A stretch of 64,000 bases of DNA from an uncultured virus (IMG/VR IMGVR_UViG_3300031942_000002). Lineage: Duplodnaviria > Heunggongvirae > Uroviricota > Caudoviricetes. The translations under genes were made by a program, and so were the position numbers. Below the pieces are notes generated by a model that saw only the letters and a list, made by a program, of their open reading frames with translations, ran no database searches and had not been told where the DNA came from. Within the stretch, counting starts at the first letter, position 1. Each line of letters begins with the position of its first letter. Shown one piece after another: positions 9,141-55,747 of this stretch. The stretch is taken from IMG/VR virus record IMGVR_UViG_3300031942_000002. One strand, 5' to 3'.

Positions 9141-9238
9141 GTGGTGTGACAGTACCGGAGATGGCAAATGGGGGTCAGTCGCCTGGGGGGTCACCGAGGC
9201 AAGGCCCGAAGTAGGCCCTAAGACCCAGGAGAACTCCA

Positions 9239-9835
9239 ATTCCCCAGCAAACCCGCTCAGAGCCCCGTAGAAGGCGCAGCAAAGACGAATACGCCCAGTA
9301 CATCAATTCGACCAGCTGGGAGCGCAGGAAGGCAGCCTTCTATGCCAATCACAAGAGGCAGTGCCAGGCGTGCGGGAGCGTCATCGACATCCACCTGCAT
9401 CACCACACCTACCGGCGGATGGGAGCTGAGTTGGACTCCGATCTGGTTCCGCTGTGTCAGCGTTGTCACGACCTCGTGCACAAGCTGCACAAGGAGAACG
9501 AGGGTTGGACGCTGACCCGAGCGACGAGGACGTTCCTGCGGTTTTACGGCGCCAACCTGACTCCCCGACGGGCCAGGCCGAAAGGACAGCGTCCCGCGCG
9601 TCGTCGCCAACCCAAGCCCGAGCCACCCACCCTGCAGCCAGTCATCGTTAGCGACAAACCCGCCCCGGCGCCGCGCCCCGAGCTGAATCTGCATCCCCAG
9701 CCACTGATCAGGCTGGCCGAGGTGGTGGTGGAGTTCGGGATATCCAAGTCTGTGTTGCACCGTCAGGGATATCAACGGTCGGTGCCTCAGGGAACAGTGG
9801 AGCGGTGGCGTCGGATACGCCCCGAGTGGATGTGA
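9239..9835 (+). CDS. HNH endonuclease, start uncertain (possible ATT)
   Basis: In-frame YAQYINSTSWERRK...CQACG...LHHHTY...LVPLCQRCHDLVH extends well upstream of ATG 9419; AGGAGA at 9227-9232. Confidence 0.75.
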   Translation: MPQQTRSEPRRRRSKDEYAQYINSTSWERRKAAFYANHKRQCQACGSVIDIHLHHHTYRRMGAELDSDLVPLCQRCHDLVHKLHKENEGWTLTRATRTFLRFYGANLTPRRARPKGQRPARRRQPKPEPPTLQPVIVSDKPAPAPRPELNLHPQPLIRLAEVVVEFGISKSVLHRQGYQRSVPQGTVERWRRIRPEWM

Positions 9836-12852: not shown

Positions 12853-13049
12853 TGATGGGGGCCATGGCCATGAGACTCGACGAAGCCGAGGAACGCATCG
12901 GTGCCCAGGTGGTCTTCCAGATCCACGACACCGACCACCAGCCCGAGTACGGCGTGATCAGCCACGTCAACGATCCCTATGTGTACGTGCGCTATGGCGC
13001 CGACCGCATCGCCAAAGCCACCCACCCGATGATGTTGGAGTTCATATGA
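12852..13049 (+). CDS. small hypothetical protein (SH3-like barrel possible)
   Basis: TGATG coupling; YGVISHVNDPYVYVRYG. Confidence 0.55.
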   Translation: MMGAMAMRLDEAEERIGAQVVFQIHDTDHQPEYGVISHVNDPYVYVRYGADRIAKATHPMMLEFI

Positions 13050-13089
13050 GCGCCAGCCGGATCACGAGCCTGCTCGGGAAGGAAACAAA

Positions 13090-13380
13090 GTGAGAGTCGA
13101 ATACAAGTGCCTGTCGATGGGCTGCTCGGTGGGCATCCATGTGGGCACGGTCTGGAAACCCAGCCGGGAGGCCAAGGCTCGTTATTCGCAGGAGAGCGAC
13201 TATGAGATCGCGGTGAAGCTGGGACTGACCGCCGACCCGCTGCCGCTGACGATGCGCTGCAACGCCGGTCCGCAGGGGCTGTCCGAGCGCAATGTGCACT
13301 TCGCCATGGTGGAGTTCGACGACCGCCCCGGCGCCCTGGCGGTGCACAACTGGTCCGAGCTGAAAGTTGTCGAGCCGTGA
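13090..13380 (+). CDS. hypothetical protein
   Basis: AAGGA RBS; GTGA coupling. Confidence 0.6.
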   Translation: MRVEYKCLSMGCSVGIHVGTVWKPSREAKARYSQESDYEIAVKLGLTADPLPLTMRCNAGPQGLSERNVHFAMVEFDDRPGALAVHNWSELKVVEP

Positions 13381-13706
13381 GCAGCCATGGTAAGGAGCAG
13401 CGCTCCAAACGGTCCCGGCGCAGCCATTCCGGCATGTCCAGAATCCTCGACATAGGCCCCTGCGAGCCGTCGGGCGGCAAGCTGGGCTACCGGACGCATG
13501 CCGATGCGAAAGAGGCGCTGAAACGCATTCAGCGGGCGGTGGGCCAGAGGTGCGAGCAGCGGGTGTACAAGTGCGAGCACGCCGAGCACTATCACCTGAC
13601 GTCCAAGCCGTACATGCCGGAGAAAAACTTCCCGCACGTCTCCATTCCGACGTCGCGCCCGGGCATCGAGCGCGTCCTAGAGGCTTGCCGCCGTGAAGAC
13701 GCGTGA
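13377..13706 (+). CDS. small putative metal-binding protein
   Basis: C..GK.GY....DA...RVYKC....HYHLTS pattern common in phages. Confidence 0.6.
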   Translation: MSSHGKEQRSKRSRRSHSGMSRILDIGPCEPSGGKLGYRTHADAKEALKRIQRAVGQRCEQRVYKCEHAEHYHLTSKPYMPEKNFPHVSIPTSRPGIERVLEACRREDA

Positions 13707-14070
13707 CACCGACAGCTGGCAGGGGCGCCGGGCGGCGCTGGCTGGCGGCGGCGAGATCAGCGTGGCTTTCCTGACGTTCTTGGAGGACTGGGTGGAGGGC
13801 GCCGAGGGGCAGCTGGTTCTGCACGGCAGGCTGCTCACCCCCGGCGAGGCATTGCGGCGCTCGGTGCAGTTCGTCGAGGCCCGGCAGGGCCGGTTTCCGG
13901 CGTATCTGCTGGCTCAGATGCTGGCGGTGCTGGCCGAACACTGGGTCTACGGCCAGGAGATGATGGAGGATCTTACGCCGGTCGAACGCCGACTGGTGGA
14001 GGACGTGACGCTGCTCAAGATCGACGAGCTGCAGCGCCAAGCAGAGGAGACACACAATGGAAGTCCTTGA
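13693..14070 (+). CDS. hypothetical protein
   Basis: GC3 bias, operon position. Confidence 0.6.
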   Translation: MKTRDTDSWQGRRAALAGGGEISVAFLTFLEDWVEGAEGQLVLHGRLLTPGEALRRSVQFVEARQGRFPAYLLAQMLAVLAEHWVYGQEMMEDLTPVERRLVEDVTLLKIDELQRQAEETHNGSP

Positions 14071-14254
14071 AACCGTGGCGGTGAGCGCGATCCTGATCGC
14101 ACTGGCCGTGTACCTGGTGCTGCTGATCAAATGGTGGCCGGTGTTCGACGACCCCGACTACTTCAGGCGCCAAGAGATTGAAGACCGGCTGTGGACTTAC
14201 GAGCTGAAGCAGATCGCCGCCGAGGTCCAGATCAACGAAGAGGCCCGGTTGTGA
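14057..14254 (+). CDS. small membrane protein
   Basis: GGAGACACAC RBS; N-terminal TM helix. Confidence 0.7.
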   Translation: MEVLETVAVSAILIALAVYLVLLIKWWPVFDDPDYFRRQEIEDRLWTYELKQIAAEVQINEEARL

Positions 14255-14544
14255 GCGACCCCGAGCCACCCACCCGTATCGACTCCTTCAAATTGACTGT
14301 GCGTATGGATGCCACCCTCACGGTCAACGGCACCACCGACCAATGGCTCAAGCCGGGTACCGAGGCGTCCATCGGCTGGAAGGGCTGGGAGCGCAACGGG
14401 GTGTGGGTCGATCCCATCCCCACCCAGGAGGAGATCAAGCTGGCGTTCCAGATGATCCAGACCGGCGTGCTGGCGCCGGTGCTCGAAGAGATGGTGCAGA
14501 TCGCCCAGCGCGAGATCGTCAAACAGCGCCAAGGCGGCAGATAG
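14251..14544 (+). CDS. hypothetical protein
   Basis: GTGA coupling. Confidence 0.6.
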   Translation: MSDPEPPTRIDSFKLTVRMDATLTVNGTTDQWLKPGTEASIGWKGWERNGVWVDPIPTQEEIKLAFQMIQTGVLAPVLEEMVQIAQREIVKQRQGGR

Positions 14545-14607
14545 ATCGGTCCTTTGGGCATGTCTTGGGCCTACGTTAGACTAAAGTTGTAGGAAAAGGA
14601 GACACAC

Positions 14608-15351
14608 ATGACAGTTGAAAAGAGCGAAATCGCTCTCAGCCCCATCGGTGAGCTGTTGCGGGCAGCCGGTGGGGACGTCGCCATCGCGATGGAAACCTTC
14701 CGCAAAAAGGCTTCCGCCGAGACGTTGGCGGACGAATCGTCGGCGTCCACGGTGGCCGCACGCAAGGCCGAGTACAAGCGGATGCTCGACGAATACGCAA
14801 AAGGTGAGGGTGGCATGGATGCCCTCATCGCCATGGGCGAGCGGCTGGGCCAGCTCGTCAACAAAATCACCGCCTTGGACCTCTCCACGCACGATGGAGC
14901 ATTGTCGGCTGAGCAGGCTGCGGCGTTGATGGACATCCGGCTGGGCGCCAAGGAAGCCACCGAGCTTCTCGACGTCTACAACAAGGGTGTCCTCAAGGTA
15001 GCGGTGTTCGCGCACATGGATGCGCAGCTGGCCGTCGAGGGTGTCAAGGATCCACAGAATCACAACGCCACCCTGGATGTACCCGAGTTCGGCCGGAAGT
15101 TCTCGCGCGAAGGCGCGGGGTACACCGACCCCACCCTGGACGAGGGCCGTCTGCGCATGCGGGTGGGCGAGGAGGTCTGGCAGGAGATCTGCGAGGCTGA
15201 GGAGGTACCGGCACACGTCGAATACACCTTCAGCCTCAAGAAGCTGTTCGACCGGGCCGAGCAAGATCCTGTGCTCTACAACACCATTGGAGAGTGCATG
15301 ACCTTCGGCGAGCCCAAGGCACCGCGCCTCAACGACAGGAAGATGACCTGA
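14608..15351 (+). CDS. hypothetical protein (helical N-terminus)
   Basis: TAGACT -10-like element and GGAGACACAC RBS. Confidence 0.75.
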   Translation: MTVEKSEIALSPIGELLRAAGGDVAIAMETFRKKASAETLADESSASTVAARKAEYKRMLDEYAKGEGGMDALIAMGERLGQLVNKITALDLSTHDGALSAEQAAALMDIRLGAKEATELLDVYNKGVLKVAVFAHMDAQLAVEGVKDPQNHNATLDVPEFGRKFSREGAGYTDPTLDEGRLRMRVGEEVWQEICEAEEVPAHVEYTFSLKKLFDRAEQDPVLYNTIGECMTFGEPKAPRLNDRKMT

Positions 15352-15365
15352 CCCCGGGAGCGGTA

Positions 15366-15941
15366 ATGGAGCGTGAAAAAGCTGGCTCGGAGGACTGGGC
15401 TATCACAGCCGCACGTCAGTTCGCGGCATCAGCCAGCGGGCGGGGCCTGGCCATCCCCGTCGAAGCGGTGGCCGAGGTGTTCCGGCAGATCGAGACGATC
15501 GACGTCGACCTGTCGGGGATCGAGCGCGTCTACAACACCGAGGAGGCCGCGCAGTTTTTCGGTAAGAGCCCGCAGTGGATGTACTGGGCGATGCGCTCGC
15601 GCGACGACGGCGGCGGCGGCTGGTTCTACTACGCGCTGGACGATCCCGATCATCCCCCGCTGGATCCCGAGAATCCCGAGCCCCGTCCGATCGAGCCCGA
15701 GCGCCACGGCAAGAAAGGGATCCGGCGGTTCAACCTCGAAGTCATCCAGAACATGGCGGTGTCGCTGTACCAGAAGGGCGGCATGCGTTCCATCGACCAG
15801 TTGCAGGAGGTTGTCAGGCGCGTTCAACTGGCCAAGACCGGCCGGTGGGCGCCGGAGCCACCGAAGAAGACGCGGCGTAAACGTAAGACTAAAGCGAAGG
15901 CATCGTCGAAGAATGGATCAGTCGGCCAAGGACCTGCTTGA
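15366..15941 (+). CDS. MerR/excisionase-like HTH DNA-binding protein
   Basis: YNTEEAAQFFGKSPQWMYW...GIRRFNL; basic tail. Confidence 0.6.
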   Translation: MEREKAGSEDWAITAARQFAASASGRGLAIPVEAVAEVFRQIETIDVDLSGIERVYNTEEAAQFFGKSPQWMYWAMRSRDDGGGGWFYYALDDPDHPPLDPENPEPRPIEPERHGKKGIRRFNLEVIQNMAVSLYQKGGMRSIDQLQEVVRRVQLAKTGRWAPEPPKKTRRKRKTKAKASSKNGSVGQGPA

Positions 15942-16974
15942 CCAACATTTCGCGGAGGGCCGCCGGAAGTGCCTGACCTATCTGGCCGGTCTGAATCCCG
16001 GGTCCCTGTTGCACCCGATGGGACGCGGTATCGGCGCGACCATCATGGACGAGTACGGCGAGCAGTACCTGGACTTCAACGGCGGCTCTCAGCTGTTGTT
16101 CGGGCACCGTGACCCCGAGGTGGCCAACATGGCGCTGGTGCAGCTGCAGGAGCACACCTGGTTCGGTGATTACGGTGATTACCAGGACCGGCTGGTGGCC
16201 GACTACGCCGCGCTGCTCTCCGAGCGCTTTCCGCAGAAGGACGGCCAGCCGCTGAAGGTGATGTTCACGCCGTCGATCTACGAGGCGCGCATGACCGCCG
16301 CCCAGATCTGCATTTGCCCACCGTCGCAAGGCGGCTACTTCCTGAGCCTGCTGGATCCCGAAGGGGTGCCACGTGAAGGCGGCGAGGTGCAGGATGAGGT
16401 GCACCGGGCCCGCGCGCAGCGGCTGAAGATCATTGCCGACGAGCTGGACACCGGCTTTGGGCGCACCGGCACGTTCGGTCTGTTCGAGCAGTACCACGTC
16501 ACCCCCGACGTCATCCTGCTCGGTTCGGCGGGCACCGGGGGCCTGCCGTGCAACGCGGTGTTGGCGCCAGGTCCGTTGTTCGAGTCGGATGCTTTCCGCC
16601 AGCTGATCGCGCACGTTGCGCCCACCCCGAATCCGATCGCCTGCGCGGTGGGCAATGCGATCGTGCCGCGCATCAACGATTCGTTGCTGGCGCAGGTCCG
16701 CAACGTGGCCGACACGCTGCGCACCGACCTGGAAACGGTGCGCGAGCAGTTCAGCGACATCCTGCATTCCACCCCGGGCATCGGGCTGATCCGCACCATC
16801 AAACTCAACGCCCCGAGCCAGGCACAGGATTTCCGCCGCCGCTGCCGCCACGCGGGGCTGCTTATCCAGCCCACTCTGCGGCTGTCCCCGCCGCTGACCG
16901 TCACCGTGCAGCAGGTGCGGGTGGCCGTGGACGCGATAGCGGCGGCGTGCATCGAGATGGGAGAGCTGCTGTGA
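15913..16974 (+). CDS. class III (PLP fold I) aminotransferase homolog, degenerate
   Basis: GEQYLDF...LFGH, IIADELDTGFGRTG, PDVILLG, NPIACA, GIGLI, LRLSPPL; Schiff-base Lys position reads Ser. Confidence 0.8.
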   Translation: MDQSAKDLLDQHFAEGRRKCLTYLAGLNPGSLLHPMGRGIGATIMDEYGEQYLDFNGGSQLLFGHRDPEVANMALVQLQEHTWFGDYGDYQDRLVADYAALLSERFPQKDGQPLKVMFTPSIYEARMTAAQICICPPSQGGYFLSLLDPEGVPREGGEVQDEVHRARAQRLKIIADELDTGFGRTGTFGLFEQYHVTPDVILLGSAGTGGLPCNAVLAPGPLFESDAFRQLIAHVAPTPNPIACAVGNAIVPRINDSLLAQVRNVADTLRTDLETVREQFSDILHSTPGIGLIRTIKLNAPSQAQDFRRRCRHAGLLIQPTLRLSPPLTVTVQQVRVAVDAIAAACIEMGELL

Positions 16975-17750
16975 GCGGGGATTCGATCGATCTGGCGTTG
17001 TCCACCGAGGAGGCCGAGCGCGTCTACCAGGTCTGGCCGGATCTGAAGACCACTTGTCCCACCTGCGCCAACAAGGGCACTTACCGCTGGCAGGGTAAAG
17101 ATCGCAACTGCGACTGCCAGCGTCAGAAGCAGCTGGCCAAGCACTACACCGCCGCCGGGATCGGGAAAATTTTCCAGCGGTCCAGCGTGGCCGACTGGCA
17201 CGGTGACGAAGAGGCTTACAAGGCGGTCGACCACTACCTGCAGAACTGGGAGGCTTACGTCGATCGGGGGATGGGGGTCATTCTGTGGGGGCCTCTCGGC
17301 ACCGGCAAGACGTTCCTGGCCAACATGATCCTCAAGCATCTGGTCCGCCAAGGCGTGAGGTGCTACGCCACCACTTTCTCCAAGATGATCGAGGCGTTCA
17401 CCGCCACCTGGGGAGACAAGTCGAAGAAGCAGTGGTTCGAGGACAGGTTCATGTACACCCAGGTGCTGCTGCTCGACGACTTGGGTAAGGAGGGACGGTC
17501 CAGCCACAACCTGCCGCAGACCACCTTTGACCACATTCTGCGCGATCGTGCCCAGAACGCCCGCCCGACGATCCTGACCACCAACATCGAGCCTGACAAC
17601 CTCGACCTGGGCTACGGTGGCGCGGTGTTAAGCCAGCTCAAGAGGTCCTGTTTCCACGTGGAGGTGAAGGGCGCCGATTACGGGCTCATCAATTTCAGGC
17701 TGGAAAACGACGAGGTCGATGTCGGAGAGAAGCGGCGACCGATCGTATGA
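16971..17750 (+). CDS. DnaC/IstB-like AAA+ helicase loader
   Basis: CPTC...CDC, GPLGTGKT, LLLDDLGKE, RPTILTTN; directly upstream of DnaB. Confidence 0.85.
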   Translation: MSGDSIDLALSTEEAERVYQVWPDLKTTCPTCANKGTYRWQGKDRNCDCQRQKQLAKHYTAAGIGKIFQRSSVADWHGDEEAYKAVDHYLQNWEAYVDRGMGVILWGPLGTGKTFLANMILKHLVRQGVRCYATTFSKMIEAFTATWGDKSKKQWFEDRFMYTQVLLLDDLGKEGRSSHNLPQTTFDHILRDRAQNARPTILTTNIEPDNLDLGYGGAVLSQLKRSCFHVEVKGADYGLINFRLENDEVDVGEKRRPIV

Positions 17751-18991
17751 GCGAGCTGGAACGGCGCCTGCTGGCCAATTTGACCAGCAATCGCGAGATG
17801 GTCACCGCGTGGGAGTTGGGGCTGCGCAGCGTGCACTTCACCGAGTTGGTGTGCAAGGCGATGTTCGACTTCATGGTCGACTACTGGCACACCGAGCAGC
17901 AGCGGATGATGCCAACGTTGGCCGTACTGACCAAGCAGTTCCCCGGCATCGAGCTGCCTATCGACGAGGACTTGTCCACCACCTGGGCTACCGAGCAGCT
18001 CAAAAACGACTTCGCTAACACCGCGATCCAGGAAAAGATGCTGGAAGGCGCCAAGATCGCGCATGCTGACCCACAGGAGGCGGTGCGCTTTCTGCGCAGT
18101 GAATTCCACTCCATGGCCGAGAATGTCACGCCCCGATATAGCCGATCTGATATGGCGCTCAACATCGTCGAGCGGCGCACCCGCTACCTAGAACGCGCCG
18201 AAGGCCAGCGCCGGGGTGTGACGCTGGGGATCCCCGCGCTCGACGACCACGTCGGCGGACTACTACCTGGCGAGCTGTGCGTGGTGGGCGCCTACTCCAA
18301 GACCGGCAAGACGATGTGGCTGGCCAACGTCGCGATCGCCGCCCGGCGCTCCGGCCTCGTGCCGATTTTCTTCAGCCTGGAAATGCCCAAGGAGGAGATC
18401 GAAGACCGGCTGGACGCCATGTTCAGCGGCATCAGCTATGACCGGCTGTCCAAGTCCAAGCTGAACATGGACGAGATGCGCCACCTGGCGGCGTGCCAGG
18501 AGGAGTTGGCCGATCTGGGTGGGCTTAAGGTCGAGGCCCCTGAGGAAGGCGACCGCACCGTGGCGGCCATCGTCAATCGGGCCCGCTACGCCGACGCGCC
18601 CTATCCGATCATCGACCAGCTGTCTTTTATGGAGCCCGCGCGGCGGGTGCGCGACCTCAAAGAGCACCACAGTGTGATCATGCGCCAGCTCAAAGCCGAG
18701 ATCGGTAGGGCGTCGGCGGGCAGGGTGCCGTGCGTGCTGGCCGTCCAGTTCAACCGGGAGAGCCAGCGCCGCCATGAGGGGGTGGGCCTGGACAGCTTCG
18801 CTAACGCCACCGAGGTGGAGGCGACGTCGGATCTGTGTCTGGGGCTGTGGCGTAACGCCGAGATGGAGCAGGCCAACCAGATGCAGATGCGGCTGCTAGG
18901 GGCCCGGCGATCGCGCACCGCCAGCTGGCTGTTGAACTGGCACCTGTTCGGGCGCACCGAGATTTCGATGGACAGGGTGTTAGACGAATGA
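17747..18991 (+). CDS. dnaB: DnaB-like replicative helicase
   Basis: GIPALD...GGLLPGEL, GAYSKTGKT, FFSLEM, IIDQL, AVQFNRES. Confidence 0.9.
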   Translation: MSELERRLLANLTSNREMVTAWELGLRSVHFTELVCKAMFDFMVDYWHTEQQRMMPTLAVLTKQFPGIELPIDEDLSTTWATEQLKNDFANTAIQEKMLEGAKIAHADPQEAVRFLRSEFHSMAENVTPRYSRSDMALNIVERRTRYLERAEGQRRGVTLGIPALDDHVGGLLPGELCVVGAYSKTGKTMWLANVAIAARRSGLVPIFFSLEMPKEEIEDRLDAMFSGISYDRLSKSKLNMDEMRHLAACQEELADLGGLKVEAPEEGDRTVAAIVNRARYADAPYPIIDQLSFMEPARRVRDLKEHHSVIMRQLKAEIGRASAGRVPCVLAVQFNRESQRRHEGVGLDSFANATEVEATSDLCLGLWRNAEMEQANQMQMRLLGARRSRTASWLLNWHLFGRTEISMDRVLDE

Positions 18992-20088
18992 TCACCGGCA
19001 TGCAGGCGTTGGCCGACGAGCGGCTGTACTACCGCTACCTGCACTCGCTGGACGCCCGCGAGGTCCTCGTCCACTACGGCGCCGAGCACGTCACCGAGCA
19101 GCCCGGCGAGGACGGTACCACCGAGCTGGTGCACAGCTGCCTGATCGACCGCGTCGAGCCGCACCACAGAAATCGCGATGCCAACCCGAGCGCGTCGGTC
19201 AACGTGGAGAAGCGCAAGTTCATCTGCTACGCGTCCCAGTGGCGCGGGGACCTCTTCCACCTGGTGATGAAGATGGAGGGCAAGGAGAGCTTCTCCGAGG
19301 CGCTGCTGGCCGTCTCCGACCTGATCCACGCGGGCCCCGACGACGACGAGACGTTCAAAGACAAGCTGGTGCGCACCATGGCCGCGCCGGGCGCCTACAC
19401 GGTGGCCCCGCCGTCCTACGGGGAGTCGATCCTCAATCCCTGGATCCAGTGGACGATGCCGCATCCCTACCTGACGTCGCGCGGCATCACCGAGGAAGCC
19501 GTCGAGATGTTGCATCTGGGATGGGATGAGGCCGACAACCGGATTGTGTTCCCGCATTTCTTCAAAGGCCAGCTGGTCGGCTTCCAGAAACGCGCCATCC
19601 CACCAGGCCCGTGGCCGGAGTCGGCTGAGCAGGACCCGAAGTACAAGTCCAGCCTGGGTTTCCCCAAAGCGGAGACGCTTTACGGCTACGACTACTGCCG
19701 CACCCGCAGCCTGATGGACATGCACAAGATGACACACGTGGTGGTGGTAGAGAGTCCGATGAGCGTGGCCAAGGCCTATTCGCTGGGGATCCCCTACGTG
19801 CTGGCCACTTTCGGCGCCAAGGTGACGCCCAGCCAGCTGGCACTGCTGCACGATTTCGCGTCGGTCACGGTGTGGTTCGACGACGACCCGGCCGGTCGCG
19901 CCGGGGAGCGCACCCTGGTCAATGGCCTGTCGGTGAGCAAGGTACTGGTGGTGGACCCCGAACCCGGCCGAGATCTGGGAGACTGTTCCACGAGAGAGGA
20001 AGTCCAGGCGATGTTGGACTCGGCCGTACCCGCATTCATGAAGCGGGCCCAATACGACGCCGAGAAGGTGCGGAAGGGGATGCGCTAA
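18988..20088 (+). CDS. DNA primase (zinc finger plus TOPRIM)
   Basis: C...H...D.NPS...FICY; YLTSRGI; RIVFP; PKYK; VVVES; WFDDDPAG. Confidence 0.85.
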   Translation: MITGMQALADERLYYRYLHSLDAREVLVHYGAEHVTEQPGEDGTTELVHSCLIDRVEPHHRNRDANPSASVNVEKRKFICYASQWRGDLFHLVMKMEGKESFSEALLAVSDLIHAGPDDDETFKDKLVRTMAAPGAYTVAPPSYGESILNPWIQWTMPHPYLTSRGITEEAVEMLHLGWDEADNRIVFPHFFKGQLVGFQKRAIPPGPWPESAEQDPKYKSSLGFPKAETLYGYDYCRTRSLMDMHKMTHVVVVESPMSVAKAYSLGIPYVLATFGAKVTPSQLALLHDFASVTVWFDDDPAGRAGERTLVNGLSVSKVLVVDPEPGRDLGDCSTREEVQAMLDSAVPAFMKRAQYDAEKVRKGMR

Positions 20089-20325
20089 ATGGATCCCGTG
20101 GAACACACCCTGTCTGACGGTTACAAGGTCCACTATCACCCCGACACCGGCCGGGTGGTCCTGCAGCCGGGTCAGAGCCGCCTGCGCGAGCGTTTGACTG
20201 AGGCCCATGGTGAGAACCTCAAAGCGCATCAAGAGCTGGCAGAACGCCACAGGGGGCTGGTAAAGCGCCGCCGGGAGAGTCTGGCCGCTCACCCGATCGT
20301 TCCGCACAGTAAAAGGGTGGTTTGA
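20089..20325 (+). CDS. hypothetical protein
   Basis: Fills gap between primase and J-domain genes, coupled. Confidence 0.55.
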   Translation: MDPVEHTLSDGYKVHYHPDTGRVVLQPGQSRLRERLTEAHGENLKAHQELAERHRGLVKRRRESLAAHPIVPHSKRVV

Positions 20326-21350
20326 TGGGCCGGATCCCCCACATCCACGAGATTCTGGGGACCGATGACGGCGATCGCTTTCTGCGCCACCCCAGCAGCG
20401 CCAACGACCTGTACCGCTCCCTGGTGGGTCACCCCGGCCGCGACAGCATCCAGGCGGCCCTCGGTATTGGTCCCGAGCCCGAGGCGCCGTGGGACGTCTA
20501 CGGGCCCGACTTCATCGAGCCAGAGAACCTGCCCGCCACCCCGGTCTGGGTGGCCAGTCAGCGCGCGGAAGAATTCTTCAGCTCGCGCGACCACTGTCCC
20601 GGCGTGGGTTACCCCAGCTGCGCGCGGGCGCTGATGCGCATCCCCCGCAAGATCGGCTTGGATGCCAACGGTTACTACCGGCTGCTGGGCGTGCGCCCCG
20701 ATGCCACCGAGGCCGAGATCCGCAAGGCGCTGGCCACCAAGTACCGGCGCACCCACCCCGACACCGGCTGGGCGCCCGACACCGAGGAGTTCATGTACCT
20801 GCGCGAGATCGCCAGGGTGCTGCTCAACCCCCAGCGCCGGGAGCGTTACGACAACCTGCGCTCGGGCGAGAAGTGGGTGGACAGCCGGATCCGCAAGAAG
20901 ATCGAGGCCGACAACCCGATCGTGATGTCGATGAACGCCGAGGACCTCAGCCCGTTCTTCAAGCGCGTCGAGCAGCCCGACGAGGAGATCATCAACGATC
21001 TGGGGCGCACCGACGGCCGGATAGGCGACGGTGGGGTCTTTGCCCAGGACCGCTCCCAGGCTATGCGCGCTGCCGACACCGCGTCGGGCAACGACCACTG
21101 GGATTGGTTCTCCGAGGGCGAGCACTACACCGACCGGCTTGTCGCCCAGCTGTGGTATTTCCACCTTATGGCGCTGGCTCCGATGTTCCGCTACACCCGA
21201 GCGATCAGAGTGCAGCTGACCAATGACCGCAGGCCCACGTGGTCGGACATGGGCAACATCGTGCGCATCCCCAGATTCTGGAAACCCACGTCCGGAAACT
21301 CTTTCGCACTGTTTACCTGCGTGGTAGCGTCGATCGCACCGGGAAATTGA
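20325..21350 (+). CDS. J-domain (DnaJ-like) protein
   Basis: YYRLLGV...ATEAEIRKA...HPD...F...VLLNP.RR..YD, internal J domain. Confidence 0.85.
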   Translation: MGRIPHIHEILGTDDGDRFLRHPSSANDLYRSLVGHPGRDSIQAALGIGPEPEAPWDVYGPDFIEPENLPATPVWVASQRAEEFFSSRDHCPGVGYPSCARALMRIPRKIGLDANGYYRLLGVRPDATEAEIRKALATKYRRTHPDTGWAPDTEEFMYLREIARVLLNPQRRERYDNLRSGEKWVDSRIRKKIEADNPIVMSMNAEDLSPFFKRVEQPDEEIINDLGRTDGRIGDGGVFAQDRSQAMRAADTASGNDHWDWFSEGEHYTDRLVAQLWYFHLMALAPMFRYTRAIRVQLTNDRRPTWSDMGNIVRIPRFWKPTSGNSFALFTCVVASIAPGN

Positions 21351-21405
21351 AAACGCAAAGCTGATCCCGGCTTTTTTGGTGAAACTCGGAAAAAGGACAA
21401 CGGAA

Positions 21406-22467
21406 ATGCAAACTGGTTTTGGCGCGCTGGAACAAACACTGAAGGAAGCGGCCGCGCGCGGGGATTTCACCCCCGGCCTGGACTACTTCAAGATCGCGGA
21501 CGGCGAATCGATATTCGTTCGCTTCCTCACCGACGACATCATCACCAGCGACTTCGCGGTGAATGTCCGTTGTGCCAACGGGAAGTACCAGGATTTCCTG
21601 GTACCCGATCCCCAACAGAACCTGGTCAATCGCTACGTCCAGCCTGGCGGCTGGGACGGCAAATGCGTCAAGCGGACCATCGGTGTGGGTGTGGCCCGGC
21701 GCCAGAAGATGGTGCAGCCCACGCCGGGCAGCGACACCCGCCCCACCTTCGAGCTGGAAGACGACACCTACCAGCGCCCCGATGGGCTGTGGGCCCGCAA
21801 ATTCATCGTGTTCAAGCAGGGGCACAACAACTTCTGGGACCAGATGGTCGGCTTCTTCGGCATGTACCGCACCATCATGGATCGCGACTACCGGATCACC
21901 CGGCGCGGCGAGAAGCTGGAAACCAAGTACACCATCGTGCCGGTGGATCCCACCCCCAGCGACCCGCTGCGTGATCCCAAGGTGGTCATCGAGTACTACG
22001 GCTACGGGCGCCCATGGGATGGCAACGCCAACGATCGTTACATGTACTGCCCACAGACCGCCAAGGAGTTCGCCGACGACTATGGCAGCGAGCGCCGCAT
22101 CAAATTCTGGCTGGTGGGCGAGCAGCAGCAACAGCAGACGCAGGCCAGCAGCGGTCCGCCGCAGATCCCGATGCCCGGTCAGCCGATCCCGGCGCCCGCA
22201 CTCTCATCGCCGGGAGGCTGGGGTAACGGTGCGACGACCGAGGCCCAGGACGGTATCGGCGAATTCGACCGGGCCACCACGCACAATCCGGAACCGGCGC
22301 CGTCGGCTCCTCCGGCGATCCCGCTGCCCGGGGTGCCAACGCCAGCTGCCGCCCCGGCTCCCGAGACGCAGGTGGCACCGGCCGAGGACCAGTCCTTCGA
22401 GTCGCTGCGGGCACGCATGCAGGGCCACGCCAAGCAGCATGCTACCGAGCAGCAGCAGACCACCTAA
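21406..22467 (+). CDS. probable ssDNA-binding protein (gp32-like)
   Basis: YFKIADGESIFVRFL...DRDYRITRRG...TKYTI; Pro/Gln-rich tail; just upstream of polymerase. Confidence 0.65.
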   Translation: MQTGFGALEQTLKEAAARGDFTPGLDYFKIADGESIFVRFLTDDIITSDFAVNVRCANGKYQDFLVPDPQQNLVNRYVQPGGWDGKCVKRTIGVGVARRQKMVQPTPGSDTRPTFELEDDTYQRPDGLWARKFIVFKQGHNNFWDQMVGFFGMYRTIMDRDYRITRRGEKLETKYTIVPVDPTPSDPLRDPKVVIEYYGYGRPWDGNANDRYMYCPQTAKEFADDYGSERRIKFWLVGEQQQQQTQASSGPPQIPMPGQPIPAPALSSPGGWGNGATTEAQDGIGEFDRATTHNPEPAPSAPPAIPLPGVPTPAAAPAPETQVAPAEDQSFESLRARMQGHAKQHATEQQQTT

Positions 22468-36715: not shown

Positions 36716-37345
36716 ATGGCGACACTGGACGAGCTGGGGCTGCAACACGGGACCGACAAGAGCAGTTCCGAGCATAATTACACCTGGATCTACGACCGGC
36801 TGTTCACCCCGTGGCGCGACCAGCCCATCTCCCTGTTGGAGCTGGGCATCTGGAAGGGCGCCAGCCTGGCCATGTGGGACGAGTACTTCACCCACCCCGG
36901 CGCCCAAATCCACGGCATTGATCGCGCCATCACCTATGACAGCCTGCGCTTCAGTGACCGGGTGTGTACCCATGTCTGCGACCAGGCCGAGATCCCCCCA
37001 GGCCTGCAGGACGCCACCTTCGACGTCATCATCGACGACGCCAGCCACCTCAGTTCGAAGACCATCACCAGCTTCATCAACTGGTGGTCGAGGCTCAAGA
37101 TGCACGGTTTCTACATCGTCGAAGACCTGATGACCAGCTACTACGCTGACAACCCCGTCGAGGCCGATCCCAACCCCGAGGCCCAGGTGCCCAACGTCTA
37201 CGGACGCACCGCCATGCAGTGGTTCAAGCGGATGGCTGATCAGGTCAATGCGTGGATGATCCCCCAGGACTACTCGGTGGGTGCCTACGACGACATCGCG
37301 GCGGTATCCTTCCACCCCAACATGGTGATCGTGACCAAAGGATGA
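36716..37345 (+). CDS. class I SAM-dependent O-methyltransferase-like
   Basis: GTDK...HNY..IY, LLELGI..GASL, GID, DQ, FDVIIDDASH, GFYIVEDL. Confidence 0.85.
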   Translation: MATLDELGLQHGTDKSSSEHNYTWIYDRLFTPWRDQPISLLELGIWKGASLAMWDEYFTHPGAQIHGIDRAITYDSLRFSDRVCTHVCDQAEIPPGLQDATFDVIIDDASHLSSKTITSFINWWSRLKMHGFYIVEDLMTSYYADNPVEADPNPEAQVPNVYGRTAMQWFKRMADQVNAWMIPQDYSVGAYDDIAAVSFHPNMVIVTKG

Positions 37346-38670
37346 GCGGCATCGATCTCTCTATCTTGGTGTGCTCAACCCACACCCGCTGGAACACCTT
37401 CGGGCTAGCCATCCAAGAGCAGCTCTGGACCCAGTACCACAGCCTGCCCGAGCAGGATCAGGCTCGGCTGGAAATACTGATGTTGACGGACACCAAAACT
37501 ATGATGCTGGGCGAGAAACGCAATGTCATGATCGATATGGCCCAAGGCCGCTATGTGCAATTCATCGACGACGACGATCGCATTGCGCCGGATATGTTCG
37601 CCGAGCTGCTGCGCGCCATCGACGTCGATCCGGCCGATGTCATCACATTTCTGGTCGAAGTCTCCATGAATGGCGAGGAGCCCAAGCCGTGCGAGTACTC
37701 CATTCGTTTCCAGGAGAACCGCAACTTGCCCAATAAATATGAGCGGCTGCCCAACCACATCTGCGCCGTCAAACGCAGCATCGCGCGGCGGGCCAGTTTC
37801 CCCAACGTCGTCTACGGCGAGGACGCGGTGTACGGCCAGCTGATCCGGCCGCACCTGTCCAGCGAGCACCACATCCCTAAGGTGCTGTACTTCTACGATT
37901 GGTCCCCGCACACCACCGAGACGCAGATCCCCCGGCCGGGCTCGCTGCGGATGCGCAACATCCCACCGTTGGTCGATGTGGTGATCAGCTCCAAGGCCGA
38001 GACCCCCAAGATGAAGGCGATGACCCAGACCACCATCAACACCTGCATCTCCGGCGCCAACTCGCTGCCGGTGCACATCGTGGTGATCGAGCAATGCGAA
38101 GGCGTGCGCTACCAGCACGCCCAGACCGTGTACACCTCCGACGAGTTCAACTACAACCACTTCGCCAACCGGGGCGCGGCGCTGGGTTTCGCCCCGTGGA
38201 TCATGGTGGCCAACAACGATCTGATTTTCCGCGACGGCTGGCTGCACCAGCTGCTTGCCGCCGATCACCCGGTGATGAGCCCCAAATGCCCCGGCGACGA
38301 GCGCCAGCAGGACATCACCGAGAACACCACCGGCTACACCACCGGCGCCCATCTGTCAGGTTGGTGTTTCATGGTCAGCCGCCAGTTCTGGCACGAGATC
38401 GGCGGCTTCGACGAGGGTTTCACCGGCTGGTGCTCCGATGACGTCGTGGTGGAGCAAGCGCGGGCGCACGGCACCGCGCCCATGCTGGTGCCGTCCTCGG
38501 TGGTGGAGCATTTGCGTTCGGAGACCCTGAATCGGGCGCCCGACCACGAAGAATTGACCTGGGGGCAGGTGGCGAAATTCAATGCGAGATTCGGCGCCCA
38601 TAAATTCGCCGATGACCAGCGGTTTCTGGAATGGCAGCGTAAAATACTTTTAGCGGGAGACACAAAATGA
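37342..38670 (+). CDS. two-domain GT2 glycosyltransferase
   Basis: Domain 1: LGEKRN...GRYVQFIDDDD...YGED; domain 2: FNYNHFANRG...ANNDL...GGFDE.F...SDD. Confidence 0.85.
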   Translation: MSGIDLSILVCSTHTRWNTFGLAIQEQLWTQYHSLPEQDQARLEILMLTDTKTMMLGEKRNVMIDMAQGRYVQFIDDDDRIAPDMFAELLRAIDVDPADVITFLVEVSMNGEEPKPCEYSIRFQENRNLPNKYERLPNHICAVKRSIARRASFPNVVYGEDAVYGQLIRPHLSSEHHIPKVLYFYDWSPHTTETQIPRPGSLRMRNIPPLVDVVISSKAETPKMKAMTQTTINTCISGANSLPVHIVVIEQCEGVRYQHAQTVYTSDEFNYNHFANRGAALGFAPWIMVANNDLIFRDGWLHQLLAADHPVMSPKCPGDERQQDITENTTGYTTGAHLSGWCFMVSRQFWHEIGGFDEGFTGWCSDDVVVEQARAHGTAPMLVPSSVVEHLRSETLNRAPDHEELTWGQVAKFNARFGAHKFADDQRFLEWQRKILLAGDTK

Positions 38671-52950: not shown

Positions 52951-53403
52951 GCGACAAGCCGGGTTTCATGACCAAAGAGATCCCGTTCATCCGCGAGGGC
53001 GCCGGGCGCTATCGGTCCAGGGCCTACTGGGGCTTCGCCAAGCTGGATCACACCTACGCCATCGAGCGCTTCGGCACGCAGTGGTCGCTGAGCGTGGACG
53101 CGGCCTATCCCAAGCAGTTCCTGTTCGCCACCAAACGCGACGCCGTCAAAGCCGCCACCGAGTACGAGGAGGCGCACTGATGACCGACGAGGAGTGGTTC
53201 CACAACCCGAATTCGGTGCTGATGTTCGGCGGTGTCCTGGTGCGTGCCGACCATCTCGACACCGCTAAAGACCTGCTCTACTACTTCGAGAAACCCTGGA
53301 AGTGGACGACCGAGCACGCGTTGTGGGAGGGCTGCAACCGGCCGGATCTCGACGAGGACGGCTGGGACTGGTTTCTGCGCAAGCTGGAAGAGTTGGTGGG
53401 CTT

Positions 53404-54390
53404 ATGAGTGCTCCGATGCCGGTGTTGCGCGCGCTGATGGGCGGCGCCAAGATCTGGCCGCTGGCTCGCGCGTTGTACGAGGCTACCGAGGCCGACGGCT
53501 TCGGTGGGTATACCACGCCGTGGGGGCTTTACCAGGACGAGTCGATCGCGCTGAAAGAAGACCTCCGGTTGAGCTTTCTGCGCGAAATCACCGCCTGCGT
53601 GCCGTTCGACGTCCAGCTGGCCCACGACCTTTTCTGGGACCGCTTCGATAGCATCGCCTGCCGCCGTGAGGAGAACTTCGGGTCGCTGCGCATGCCCTAC
53701 CCGCACATGTGGATGGAGTGGGATCCCGCGCACCCGTCCGACAACAACATCTTCCAGGGGATGATGCTGACCGAGTGCGAGCCCGACGAACACGCCCCGG
53801 CATCCGGCAGGAAGATGGCGGCAAGCCGCATCCAGATGACGCTGTTCATGCACCCGGTCCAGCACCCCGACGTGGTGCTGTTCGACGAGATCCTGCACGA
53901 CATGTACTTGGACGAGAACGGCCGCTACACCTACAGCGCGCAGATCGAAGTGCCCGACAACCTGGCCGACCGGCCGGATCTGGTCACGACGGCCCAGGAA
54001 CTGATGCGCACTGCGGAGTTCACCGCCAGCCAGGCGCTGCACCTGATGAACTGCCGCAACGTGACCACCGAGAAGGCGGGGGTGGTGCCGATGCGCCGCA
54101 GTGGTCGGGCCAAGCGGACGGGCGCCAAGCCGGTGGAATACCACCACATCAAGCTGCCCGGCATGCCCAAGCTGACCGGGATCAGTCGCCGCGACCGGGA
54201 GGCGTATCAGGCCGCGATGCGGCTGCACAAGGTGAAAGGCCACTACAAACACTTCGGGCCCGAGTTCGGCACCGGGCTGCTGTTCGGGAGGCTTGCTGGG
54301 ACATTCTGGTGGGGCTGGCAGGAGCGTGGCGACATCAACGAGGGTGTCATCTTCTCCGACTACGAGCTGGCACGGGGAGATGAGTCATGA
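53404..54390 (+). CDS. HxVxGHxK-motif protein, paralog 1
   Basis: PYPHMWMEW, LMNCRNV, HKVKGHYK, GTFWWGWQERG, SDYE. Confidence 0.8.
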   Translation: MSAPMPVLRALMGGAKIWPLARALYEATEADGFGGYTTPWGLYQDESIALKEDLRLSFLREITACVPFDVQLAHDLFWDRFDSIACRREENFGSLRMPYPHMWMEWDPAHPSDNNIFQGMMLTECEPDEHAPASGRKMAASRIQMTLFMHPVQHPDVVLFDEILHDMYLDENGRYTYSAQIEVPDNLADRPDLVTTAQELMRTAEFTASQALHLMNCRNVTTEKAGVVPMRRSGRAKRTGAKPVEYHHIKLPGMPKLTGISRRDREAYQAAMRLHKVKGHYKHFGPEFGTGLLFGRLAGTFWWGWQERGDINEGVIFSDYELARGDES

Positions 54391-54707
54391 TGCAGGGAGA
54401 CATTCGCTACGAGACCGACGAGACCCATTGGGAGATCTATTGGGACGGCGACATCATGATCGACTGCCCGGTGGTGTACTTTCACGCCACCTTCCTCGCT
54501 GACCCGCCGCCCTGGTGGACGGTGATCTTCCCCGAGCGACCGGCCGACGCACAGGAGGGCGACGAGGTCGATGTTACCGGCACGCTGCTCAAGCTGCCGC
54601 CCGCTCCCGATCCTGATCCTGACTACGTCTTTACCGGGCGTGTATGGCGGCTGACCGGGCGCATGGACCCCATCTACGGCGGATACGAAGGGAGGTGGCC
54701 GGATTGA
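54387..54707 (+). CDS. hypothetical protein
   Basis: Coupled between the two paralogs. Confidence 0.65.
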   Translation: MMQGDIRYETDETHWEIYWDGDIMIDCPVVYFHATFLADPPPWWTVIFPERPADAQEGDEVDVTGTLLKLPPAPDPDPDYVFTGRVWRLTGRMDPIYGGYEGRWPD

Positions 54708-55747
54708 GCGCCGGTAAATTCCCGATCGCCAACCTGCTCAAGTCGGGCGCCCCCATCCGCTCGCTGGATGGCCACGGGCTGGACATGGTCAACCAGGACA
54801 ACGTGCGCACCCACCTGCTGGGCGATCGGGTGGCGTTCTTCGAGCTGTCGGTGGCCGCCGACCTGTACTGGCTGGGCAAGCAGGACTACTACCGGCTGGA
54901 CTCCGACTTCGGGCCGATGCGCCCGCCATACCCCGCCATGTGGTGCGAGTGGGAAGTCCCCGACAAGGTGCTGATCCACGGCAAGTGGTGGGACATGGAA
55001 GCCAGGGCCCGGTTCGGCGCCCTGGTGATCAGTGACACCATCAACACCGCCGACCTCGACGAGGAGCAGCTGCGCGGCTCGATCACCGGCTTCGCCCAGA
55101 TGTATCCCAAGTACTTCAAGCGCAACCCCGAGACCAACCTGGATGACATGATCCGCGATGCGGATGCGTTCAAGGCACTGCGCGACGAGTTGCGCGCCGA
55201 TGCCCGCGAGATGATCGCCGTGCAGGTGATCATGTACATCCTCGACGCGAATGACGGCGTGGTCTTTCTGCCCTACGCCCGCCAGATCGGGCTGAACCCC
55301 GACGGACTGTTCAATCACTTCATCTCCGACATGGTCCCGACGTCCCAGGTGCCCGAGGAGACCCTGCACGCCGCCAAGGAGATCGGGGACGCCAACCCGG
55401 TGTGGCTGGCGCTGAATTTGATCAACTGTCGCAACGTGACCACTCGCGAGCAGGGCAGCGTCTTTGCGCGCAGCACCCGGGAGAAGCGCCAGCGGGTGCC
55501 GATCACCCGCTATCACACCATCGAGCTGCCCGGTACCGCCGGTCGCGAACTGCGCCACGGTCGGCGCCGCCGGTCCCCGGCCGAGGAGTACGTGATGAGC
55601 CAGCACCGGGTGCGCGGGCATTTCAAGACGTTCACCGCCGAGGCGCCGCTGCTGGGCAAGCACGTCGGCACCTATTGGTGGGGCTGGCAGGTGCGGGGCT
55701 CCAAGGACGCCGGTGAGGTCATCAGCGACTACGAGATCGGGGCATGA
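54704..55747 (+). CDS. HxVxGHxK-motif protein, paralog 2
   Basis: PYPAMWCEW, LINCRNV, HRVRGHFK, GTYWWGWQVRG, SDYE; GGAGG RBS, TTGA overlap. Confidence 0.8.
   Translation: MSAGKFPIANLLKSGAPIRSLDGHGLDMVNQDNVRTHLLGDRVAFFELSVAADLYWLGKQDYYRLDSDFGPMRPPYPAMWCEWEVPDKVLIHGKWWDMEARARFGALVISDTINTADLDEEQLRGSITGFAQMYPKYFKRNPETNLDDMIRDADAFKALRDELRADAREMIAVQVIMYILDANDGVVFLPYARQIGLNPDGLFNHFISDMVPTSQVPEETLHAAKEIGDANPVWLALNLINCRNVTTREQGSVFARSTREKRQRVPITRYHTIELPGTAGRELRHGRRRRSPAEEYVMSQHRVRGHFKTFTAEAPLLGKHVGTYWWGWQVRGSKDAGEVISDYEIGA

Follow-up and report, generated by a model that had tools for sequence, protein, structure and literature searches.

Introduction

The aminotransferase fold is used for more than transamination. 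In the MocR/GabR regulators, a helix-turn-helix (HTH) domain is combined with an effector and dimerization domain that has the aminotransferase fold, is of the aspartate aminotransferase class, and keeps the lysine (Lys) that binds pyridoxal phosphate (PLP). There are also fold-type I enzymes that lack this Lys and have a His in its place. The described genes closest to the one considered here belong to actinobacteriophages, and GenBank annotates their products simply as "aminotransferase." The Phamerator paper, in the part available to us, states that Myrna gp183 matches many aminotransferase domain models and notes no more, while the word aminotransferase does not occur in PMC12363180. Section 11 of PMC3233612, again in the part available, gives gp183 a lysin label, which looks like a slip because GenBank annotates gp183 as an aminotransferase. 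In the literature searched, there was no description of a Lys-less phage protein or of absent catalytic residues. Here we analyze one member of this family, an aminotransferase-like (AT-like) gene of an uncultured tailed virus (Caudoviricetes), which occupies positions 15913 to 16974 of a 64,000-nucleotide stretch of DNA that we call the window. The window is part of a 125,723-bp IMG/VR virus record (IMGVR_UViG_3300031942_000002, here G000) with an estimated completeness of 84%.

A first, sequence-only reading of the window had proposed that this gene encodes an exapted pseudoenzyme. We find that the Lys-less state is ancient, shared, and selected, and that, in this phage, the gene appears to be all that is left of a set of genes found with its catalytically complete relatives. 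It is very likely that the protein is a pseudoenzyme derived from an enzyme of that gene set, orphaned and under selection. The earlier proposal therefore stands as far as a pseudoenzyme for PLP transamination is concerned; its other half, a free exaptation, fits less well than an orphaned relic kept for a second job.

An aminotransferase fold without its catalytic residues

The AT-like protein belongs to the class III aminotransferase superfamily by both profile and fold, as the sequence-only reading had recognized from its motifs. It matches PF00202 (Aminotran_3) at an E value of 2.9e-30 (105.7 bits versus a cut-off of 30.5) and phrog_2736 ("aminotransferase") at 5.4e-55, and 160 PDB sequences are matched at E ≤ 0.01. 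It falls outside the ArgD equivalog: ArgD NF002874 is the best NCBIfam match, at 113.6 bits versus a cut-off of 457, and covers only residues 168 to 345. An AlphaFold2 (AF2) model made with a 55-row alignment is confident (pLDDT 95.2, pTM 0.91), and its top PDB matches in Foldseek are class III aminotransferases only (4ade_B at 3.8e-22; TM scores of 0.76 to 0.83; probability 1.00 to many). The large domain of the model has five strands, compared to the canonical seven. A search among longer proteins returned only ordinary fusions, e.g., ArgB-ArgD, with none from the phage clade, and the ESM Atlas gave generic aminotransferase clusters only.

Much of the catalytic equipment is missing from this fold. 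The protein contains PDVILLGSAGTGGLP, and in the best PDB alignment (HMMER, to putrescine aminotransferase 4uox) the Lys of "lAKAlGGG" is aligned with Ser205 in "LLGSAGTGG." The (A/G)K(A/G)xGGG loop of functional enzymes thus has Ser at the Schiff-base Lys position, which is the Lys-to-Ser change first noticed by eye. The cofactor cup has changed as well, with Ile122 in the phosphate-binding turn, the FHG segment deleted, Asp179 in place of the O3' Gln, and Ala236 in place of the partner-subunit Thr of TFGGNP. Translation confirms the DELDTG and SIYEA motifs that the sequence-only reading had pointed out, and the stretch containing FHGRT is indeed absent: 14 residues of the window protein separate the SGxEA helix from the "EPxQGE" strand, versus 69 to 76 in Lys-bearing relatives. 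In other Lys-less lineages this middle segment ranges from 0 (Settecandela) to 49 residues. The pyridine-nitrogen Asp is present (Asp176).

These losses are shared across a phage clade. An exhaustive HMMER search gave 5,314 matches at E ≤ 0.001, and we aligned the best 150 representatives of these together with the close family (158 rows), comparing 76 Lys-bearing rows, defined by K at the Lys column, with 55 rows of the Lys-less phage clade. The Schiff-base Lys (1.00, 76/76) becomes G26/P10/E7/S5 in the clade and is never K. The Gly of SGxEA (0.97 in Lys-bearing rows) becomes E13/G13/V9/P5, the Glu of EPxQGE (1.00) becomes S15/E13/D7, the Gln of DExQTG (0.87) becomes V12/R10/D6/L5, and the Thr of TFGGNP (0.91) becomes P19/A8. 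The His and Gly of FHG (0.93 and 0.95) fall in a gap in 29 to 30 of the 55 rows, and the substrate Arg (0.89) is R in only 18/55. The fullest Lys column anywhere in the clade holds 19/55 rows; therefore, there is no conserved compensating Lys.

Could the protein still be an enzyme, with a Lys-independent mechanism that depends on pyridoxamine phosphate (PMP), as in a ColD-type dehydratase, or with a new reaction? The retention of Asp176 in 46/55 rows speaks for this (D46/N6 at this column). However, the Asp is changed to Asn, Val, or Gly in 8/55 rows, no conserved replacement appears at the Lys column, no Lys elsewhere is conserved, and the phosphate-binding Gly, the FHG segment, the O3' Gln, and the partner Thr have been lost along with the Lys. 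The Lys-less PMP enzymes (ColD/E1) have a His at the Lys position in an otherwise intact site, and the window protein has neither. We consider a residual enzyme highly improbable.

What the clade does conserve is mostly the fold. G64, E177, G291, G315, and P326 are invariant (55/55), R184 and G186 are found in 54 rows, and the Gly-rich loop GG(P/A)xGGG ranks with the best-conserved segments (entropy 1.69 bits). Segment 121-140, by contrast, has an entropy of 2.68 bits versus 1.67 in the active forms. The Lys-bearing protein P0126 has the same residue at 19 of the 22 positions whose conservation is specific to the clade; therefore, this constraint is older than the loss of the Lys.

This pattern bears on a second possibility, that the protein is a ligand-binding sensor or sponge whose remodeled site binds a 7-deazapurine, amine, or nucleotide without converting it, in connection with replication or counter-defense. 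Consistent with this, the close 10-sequence family shows no variation at residues lining the old pocket (S121, Y123, E124, A125, R126, D176, E177, and R323), the GG(P/A)xGGG loop is highly conserved across the clade, and an open reading frame (ORF) resembling an anti-Thoeris gene (Tad4) lies 1.8 kb upstream. However, the pocket positions are the least constrained when the whole clade is considered, with at least four residue types at each of the Lys, Gln, Thr, and Arg columns and the raised entropy of segment 121-140, and the lineage-variable deletions in the cofactor subdomain are hard to square with one conserved ligand. We therefore regard a ligand-binding role as improbable. The metabolite sensor suggested by the sequence-only reading is disfavored for the same reason, since the former pocket residues are unconstrained clade-wide.

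Distribution and phylogeny

By tblastn, the AT-like gene occurs in 220 phage records, every one at less than 60% identity, and at least 80% of its length is matched in 216 of them. The hosts are Mycobacterium (209 records), Gordonia (6), Rhodococcus (2), and Mycolicibacterium (1), with 2 unrelated. The matches fall in one place per phage record, and the 125.7-kb record of the window has a single match. A megablast of the gene against the phage records gave no match, and the close family has no relative in 185,579 species genomes; therefore, there is neither a prophage copy nor a hint of the host. At the motif level we read 17 loci of high-GC actinophages, namely, the window, six viral contigs, and ten isolates (Phabba, Myrna, Catera, Tonenili, Cane17, Pupper, Skog, Settecandela, Rhodococcus phage E3, and Finch). 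The Lys is absent and the frame intact in all 17. Loss of the Lys is thus a family-wide trait (220 phage records) and not special to the window copy, which goes beyond the sequence-only reading.

Two trees place the Lys-less proteins together. In a FastTree phylogeny of 137 rows (21 rows outside 300 to 520 amino acids [aa] were left out), 57 rows are without the Lys, and 55 of these group in one clade, at whose base the Lys-bearing P0126 branches. The gene is kept in 55 Lys-less representatives at the 50% identity level. In an IQ-TREE analysis (LG+C20, quick search, 54 rows, rooted on ordinary aminotransferases), the phage-module proteins form one clade of 40 rows with an SH-aLRT support of 97, and Lys-bearing forms, encoded in the gene cassette described below, branch first. 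One change can explain all 30 Lys-less rows, which are nested within the Lys-bearing phage forms. A recent capture from a host was rejected on the basis of this tree, as the gene descends from a phage cassette enzyme. The contig of P0126 itself was not found; the viral, metagenome, and genome collections gave only bacterial ArgD-like genes at no more than 39% identity. A Lys-less subclade of four proteins (P0151, P0163, P0185, and P0236; 398 to 417 aa) still has the SG in the SGxEA turn and, around FHG, a His, and by these motifs it looks like an earlier stage of decay. No viral locus was found for the P0151/P0163 subclade.

The sequence-only reading had also raised the idea of a dominant-negative partner, i.e., a poison or modifier subunit that pairs through the dimer interface with a class III aminotransferase of the host (ArgD, GabT, Lat, BioA, or HemL type). 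The closest curated family is an actinobacterial-type ArgD (NF002874), and the most conserved parts of the protein are DExxTGFGRTG and the Gly-rich loops, which we take to lie at the dimer interface of class III aminotransferases. A mixed dimer would be impaired, because the partner-subunit Thr that holds the PLP phosphate of the neighbor is lost. There is a precedent in SerTA, where a short Lys-less subunit is joined with an active aminotransferase (PMC11726168, in the part available). However, identity to Mycobacterium tuberculosis ArgD is only 24% in the structural alignment, the gene comes from a phage cassette enzyme rather than from a recent host capture, its position among replication genes is fixed across hosts of three genera, and blocking arginine or polyamine metabolism has no evident benefit for the phage. 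Such pairing is quite improbable.

A Lys-bearing relative in a putative deazapurine cassette

To the sequence-only reading we can also add a relative at the same locus that has all catalytic motifs. Further viral contigs were obtained by searching IMG/VR with family sub-alignments. Genes for DnaC, DnaB, primase, and a single-strand DNA-binding protein lie within 2 kb downstream of the AT-like gene on 9/9 contigs with enough sequence, and a DnaJ-domain gene on 6/9; a tenth contig stops 1.2 kb past the gene. The ten isolates have the same gene order, with DnaC-DnaB-primase after the AT-like gene. Five of the contigs (61 to 64% GC) carry Lys-less copies. In contrast, contigs L193 (47.5% GC) and L195-L197 (52% GC) have in the same slot a protein with NSGxEA, FHGRGYG, DE(I/V)QTGxGRTG, GKAGGGGLPFG, and TTFGGNP. 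Ten more contigs (L210-L219, 37 to 41% GC) likewise encode a Lys-bearing protein in this slot; motifs were read in six of these, and for the remaining four the tblastn maps match those of L210 or L211 exactly. In all 10 cassette loci read, SGxEA, FHGR, DExQTG, GKAxGGG, and STFGGNP are kept, and the Lys-bearing protein has 397 to 451 aa where complete.

The neighbors of the Lys-bearing gene suggest a pathway. They comprise a nucleotide kinase, FolE (221.6 bits versus a cut-off of 162), a conserved ORF of unknown function, a 5'-3' exonuclease, and a dCTP-deaminase/dUTPase-like gene, together with genes for a radical-SAM protein that scores highest, though below cut-off, with QueE models (1e-33), an acyl-protein synthetase resembling LuxE (PF04443, 2e-14), and a reductase resembling LuxC (PF05893, 4e-18). 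This cassette is found at L206:2723-10856 and also in L207 and L210-L219, directly before DnaC-DnaB-primase. The longer flank of L206 has DUF7242 and DUF7229 genes upstream of the cassette, which is the backbone of the window itself. PTPS/QueD is present in 5/5 cassette records scanned, and QueC and TGT/DpdA were each found in 0/5 (records 40 to 84% complete). Among 50,697 phage records, none matches the LuxE-like protein. In nearly all relatives, a phage Hfq-like gene (PF23874, 6.9e-21; L193:8721-9140) and a conserved small ORF, "orf144" (9153-9587), separate DnaC from the aminotransferase gene; neither was found by tblastn in the whole G000 record.

Judging from domain content, FolE, QueD, and QueE would make 7-carboxy-7-deazaguanine, and the trio of ligase, reductase, and transaminase would convert the carboxylate, via an aldehyde, into an aminomethyl group; the product would be a preQ1-type base made without QueC or QueF. 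The cassette may thus be an undescribed, QueC/QueF-independent route to aminomethyl-7-deazaguanine. A thymidine-type hypermodification was also considered and rejected, with no such genes nearby. The literature searched describes neither an aminotransferase route to preQ1 nor such a cassette; the supplements of the deazaguanine papers, which may list genes, were outside this search. In the parts available of two papers on phage deazaguanines (including PMC6884629), a term search found no LuxE, aldehyde, or transaminase, and the sole "aminotransferase" in PMC6884629 is a figure-legend label for genes making G+ from preQ0. The new element is the origin of the phage protein as an orphaned member of a probable deazapurine cassette.

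Loss of the partner genes

When the cassette proteins were searched by tblastn against the 125.7-kb record of the window and 16 other Lys-less loci, the aminotransferase alone was found, apart from genes of the backbone, of which cluster C has the kinase, E3 and Finch have the exonuclease, and most loci have the Hfq-like gene and orf144. No QueE-like, LuxE-like, LuxC-like, or DCD match was found in the window's record by tblastn, and Pfam scans of this record, which is 84% complete, gave no FolE, PTPS, or TGT. The record therefore lacks the combination by which a phage 7-deazaguanine gene set is recognized in one genome, namely, FolE, QueD, and QueE along with either QueC/DpdA or the LuxE/LuxC-like pair. 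Whole-record Pfam scans covered FolE, LuxE, and radical SAM in five isolates (Catera, Pupper, Settecandela, E3, and Finch) and FolE, PTPS, and TGT in G000. LuxE was found in 0/5 of the isolates, and FolE plus radical SAM in Finch only. Finch has a separate, ordinary DpdA-QueC-QueD-QueE-FolE cluster (L220:2886-6268; record positions 122885-126267) about 65 kb from its Lys-less gp67; thus, the canonical deazaguanine pathway and the dead relic coexist in one genome. PMC6884629, in the part available, describes Mycobacterium smegmatis as without a preQ0 pathway, which is consistent with decay of catalysis after the phage's own genes had gone.

Selection on the Lys-less gene

To measure constraint we calculated the ratio of nonsynonymous to synonymous rates (dN/dS) by the Nei-Gojobori method (NG86) in four independent pairs, with 1,000 bootstraps each. 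For the AT-like gene, dN/dS is 0.44 (Pupper-Skog), 0.43 (Myrna-Phabba), 0.40 (Tonenili-Catera), and 0.42 (window-L006). The upper ends of the 95% bootstrap intervals are all below 0.61, and 0/1,000 replicates reach 1. These absolute values are inflated at this GC content, because DnaC and DnaB in the Pupper pair also give 0.40 to 0.47; the ratio to neighboring genes is therefore the useful figure. Relative to the mean of DnaC, DnaB, and primase in the same pair, dN/dS of the AT-like gene is 1.2, 1.2, 1.2, and 4.0, versus 2.4 and 1.4 in two Lys-bearing pairs. Relative to its neighbors, the dead form is no less constrained than the live form in three of the four pairs. In cluster C1 the dead form is clearly looser. 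The sequence-only reading had named a compensating Lys and neutral drift as the findings that would speak against it. Neither was seen: no Lys column exceeds 19/55, and dN/dS shows that this copy is not drifting neutrally.

These results also address the possibility of a functionless relic, either a slowly decaying ORF or one that is kept for ribosome transit to the overlapping start of the helicase loader. All pathway partners are gone, the length of the middle segment varies by lineage and is wholly lost in Settecandela, in cluster C1 the gene has a higher rate of evolution than the replisome genes, and in the window's phage the stop overlaps the loader start as GTGA, all of which fit a relic. 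However, frames are intact in 17/17 loci, 216/220 records match at least 80% of the length, 55 representatives keep the gene, dN/dS is below 1 in 1,000/1,000 bootstraps for four pairs, the fold-determining Gly, Pro, and Glu are invariant, and the AF2 model is confident. Moreover, translational coupling cannot explain conservation at the protein level, because one to five genes intervene between the AT-like gene and the loader in most relatives. A relic without function is very improbable.

Interpretation and significance

We lean toward an explanation in which the window gene encodes a dead aminotransferase that came from a cassette enzyme, was orphaned, and was kept for a non-catalytic role. 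The ancestor would have been a phage aminotransferase with all catalytic motifs, in the replication-module slot within a FolE-QueD-QueE-LuxE-like-LuxC-like cassette. In the actinophage lineage, all partner enzymes would then have been lost and the aminotransferase gene alone retained. The Lys was probably lost once, and the cofactor subdomain has been eroding since, while the rest of the fold is under purifying selection similar to that on Lys-bearing relatives, relative to the neighboring replisome genes. The dead form belongs to a large Lys-less clade of big high-GC phages of Mycobacterium, Gordonia, and Rhodococcus.

Why has the gene been kept? What has been retained is the fold, along with lineage-specific features older than the loss, rather than a pocket; therefore, a protein-level role in replication is the likeliest reason for retention, and a scaffold or other protein-binding role fits best because the former pocket residues vary freely. 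Any such role can be proposed only tentatively, as a non-catalytic part in the early replication or nucleotide-supply machinery, e.g., as a scaffold or accessory subunit. If so, it is conceivable, at a similarly tentative level, that the non-catalytic role was already present in the active ancestor. A more specific idea, that the dead aminotransferase is a true component of replication initiation or helicase loading, whose ancestor physically tied the supply of 7-deazapurine (made without QueC or QueF by activation, reduction, and transamination of a carboxylate) to the replisome by a tether that alone survived, and became indispensable, when actinophages abandoned the modification, seems unlikely.

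Several points weigh against this interpretation. The support for the branch that implies a single Lys loss is only 78 (SH-aLRT), and the position of the P0151/P0163 pair relative to L193 plus P0126 is unresolved in IQ-TREE. The middle segment has been deleted to differing extents among lineages, which could reflect slow, ongoing decay, and in the Tonenili-Catera pair the AT-like gene evolves 3 to 6 times faster than DnaC, DnaB, and primase. NG86 probably underestimates dS at 63% GC, and saturation of dS affects some low-GC pairs; the absolute ratios are therefore approximate. For most Lys-less loci the check covered flanks of 5 to 8 kb, and the absences of partner genes are provisional, as the cassette records are 40 to 84% complete and that of the window 84%. 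The cassette chemistry is deduced from domain families, with QueE, LuxE, and LuxC below NCBIfam cut-offs or assigned by Pfam only, and a scaffold role is suggested by gene position and the conservation pattern.

The findings have consequences for annotation. In more than 200 sequenced actinobacteriophages, among them the much-used cluster C mycobacteriophages, the protein annotated as an "aminotransferase" is almost certainly incapable of transamination, judging by its residues, and the annotation misleads metabolic readings of these phage genomes. Here an enzyme has outlived its pathway with both states extant, a motif-complete copy with its partners and a conserved dead copy alone, in the same slot. 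This makes a tractable system for asking which non-catalytic job sustains a pseudoenzyme. In addition, the FolE/QueD/QueE/LuxE-like/LuxC-like/transaminase cassette may be a new way to make aminomethyl-7-deazaguanine for phage DNA.

Gene array around the AT-like gene

The AT-like gene sits in one tightly packed array with the DnaC, DnaB, and primase genes (Table 1), in a window of 61 to 66% GC. The frame is intact and, as the sequence-only reading had described, it is coupled to the DnaC-like loader through GTGA: the TGA stop (16972-16974) overlaps the loader's GTG start (16971-16973), with GGGAGAG 8 nucleotides (nt) upstream. At the other end, the DUF7229 ORF overlaps the start of the AT-like gene by 29 nt. 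Both starts are supported by homologs, which begin at the same aligned position for the AT-like gene (ATG 15913) and at ATG 15366 for the DUF7229 protein (191 aa). A scan of the plus strand from 13000 to 21134 found no promoter or terminator, which gives weak support to cotranscription.

The upstream genes are as widespread as the AT-like gene itself or nearly so. The DUF7242 gene is present in 223 phage records (tblastn), nearly the same set as that of the AT-like gene, and the DUF7229 gene in 212; one GenBank record names a DUF7229 homolog as a MerR-like HTH protein. Complex prediction for two AT-like subunits with the DUF7229 protein scored 0.00 in both runs and is uninformative either way. 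Downstream, the DnaJ-like co-chaperone is part of the replication module, because its gene is kept 3' of the primase in most relatives examined.

Table 1. Features of the AT-like gene and its neighbors in the window (residue numbers refer to the AT-like protein unless stated otherwise)
Feature	Position	Strand	Support or remarks
DUF7242 protein (phrog_2808), conserved first gene of the module	14608..15351	+	PF23890 1.2e-39; phrog_2808 1.3e-42
DUF7229 protein, probable helix-turn-helix DNA-binding	15366..15941	+	PF23875 4.9e-20
Class III aminotransferase-fold pseudoenzyme, 353 aa (P0001)	15913..16974	+	Stop-free translation; Pfam, PHROG, PDB, AF2, Foldseek
SIYEA, residues 121-125, replacing the SG(S/T)EA phosphate-binding turn; Gly to Ile122	16273..16287	+	
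FHG(R)T-segment deletion site, residues 132-145, 14 residues remaining	16306..16347	+	
DELDTG, residues 176-181; pyridine-nitrogen Asp176 kept, O3' Gln to Asp179	16438..16455	+	
Ser205 codon at the Schiff-base Lys position	16525..16527	+	HMMER alignment to putrescine aminotransferase 4uox
DnaC-like helicase loader	16971..17750	+	phrog_50 4.6e-47; IstB_IS21 2.5e-12
DnaB-like replicative helicase	17747..18991	+	phrog_19 2.5e-51; DnaB_C 7.6e-22; 4-nt overlap with loader
DnaG-type primase	18988..20088	+	phrog_47 9.8e-49; Zn ribbon and Toprim; 4-nt overlap with helicase
DnaJ-domain protein, 342 aa	20322..21350	+	PF00226 5e-12; J domain mid-protein, residues 118-177 of this protein
Single-strand DNA-binding protein	21376..22467	+	phrog_1607 2.4e-26

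Other features of the window were observed along the way. Directly upstream of the replication module, both the window phage and L006 have a Tad4-like ORF, with Pfam matches to Tad4, a type I Thoeris inhibitor, at window positions 13693-14070 (+; 1.6e-15) and at L006:3662-4183 (8.7e-23). Two adjacent paralogous ORFs of 362 and 367 aa (53302-54390 and 54644-55747, +) both belong to phrog_20769, of unknown function. A glycosyltransferase of 472 aa (37252-38670, +; phrog_8858, 4.4e-100) has no evident partner genes. ARAGORN found no tRNA or transfer-messenger RNA (tmRNA) gene in the 64-kb window; the cluster C genome announcements, in the parts available, give about 30 tRNAs and a tmRNA.

Comparison with known systems

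Compared to ArgD, AstC, and YgjG (PF00202), the window protein keeps the N-terminal segment, the DExxTGxGRTG loop, the Gly-rich loop, and the C-terminal small domain. However, it lacks the Schiff-base Lys, the phosphate-cup Gly, FHG, the O3' Gln, and the partner Thr, is about 45 to 75 residues shorter, and is encoded among replication genes rather than arginine genes. Like the MocR/GabR regulators, it would be a case of the aminotransferase fold used beyond transamination in association with an HTH, as the HTH-like DUF7229 gene overlaps its start; in contrast to those regulators, the HTH-like and AT-like genes are unfused.

The actinophage "aminotransferases" of phrog_2736 (Myrna gp183, Catera gp192, Pupper gp144, Phrappuccino/Settecandela gp106, E3 gp145, and Finch gp67) share with the window protein the family (25 to 33% identity by tblastn among those compared), the place in the module, and the loss of the Lys. 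The window's arrangement is the most compact, with no kinase, exonuclease, Hfq-like gene, or orf144 around the gene and with the GTGA junction to the loader. The Lys-bearing cassette enzyme (L193/L206, L195-L197, L210-L219, and P0126) is of the same phage gene lineage and occupies the same slot, but it keeps all motifs and is found in phages of 37 to 52% GC with its presumed pathway partners.

Among the literature searched, the nearest functional analog in print is probably Ser4 of SerTA from Serratia sp. ATCC 39006 (PMC11726168). According to the part of that paper available, Ser4 is likewise a fold-type I aminotransferase homolog, without the Lys and with parts of the fold missing, that is retained as a non-catalytic subunit. 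However, Ser4 is of the sugar-aminotransferase type and is encoded beside its active partner, Ser5, whereas the 125.7-kb record of the window has one match and no second aminotransferase alongside it.

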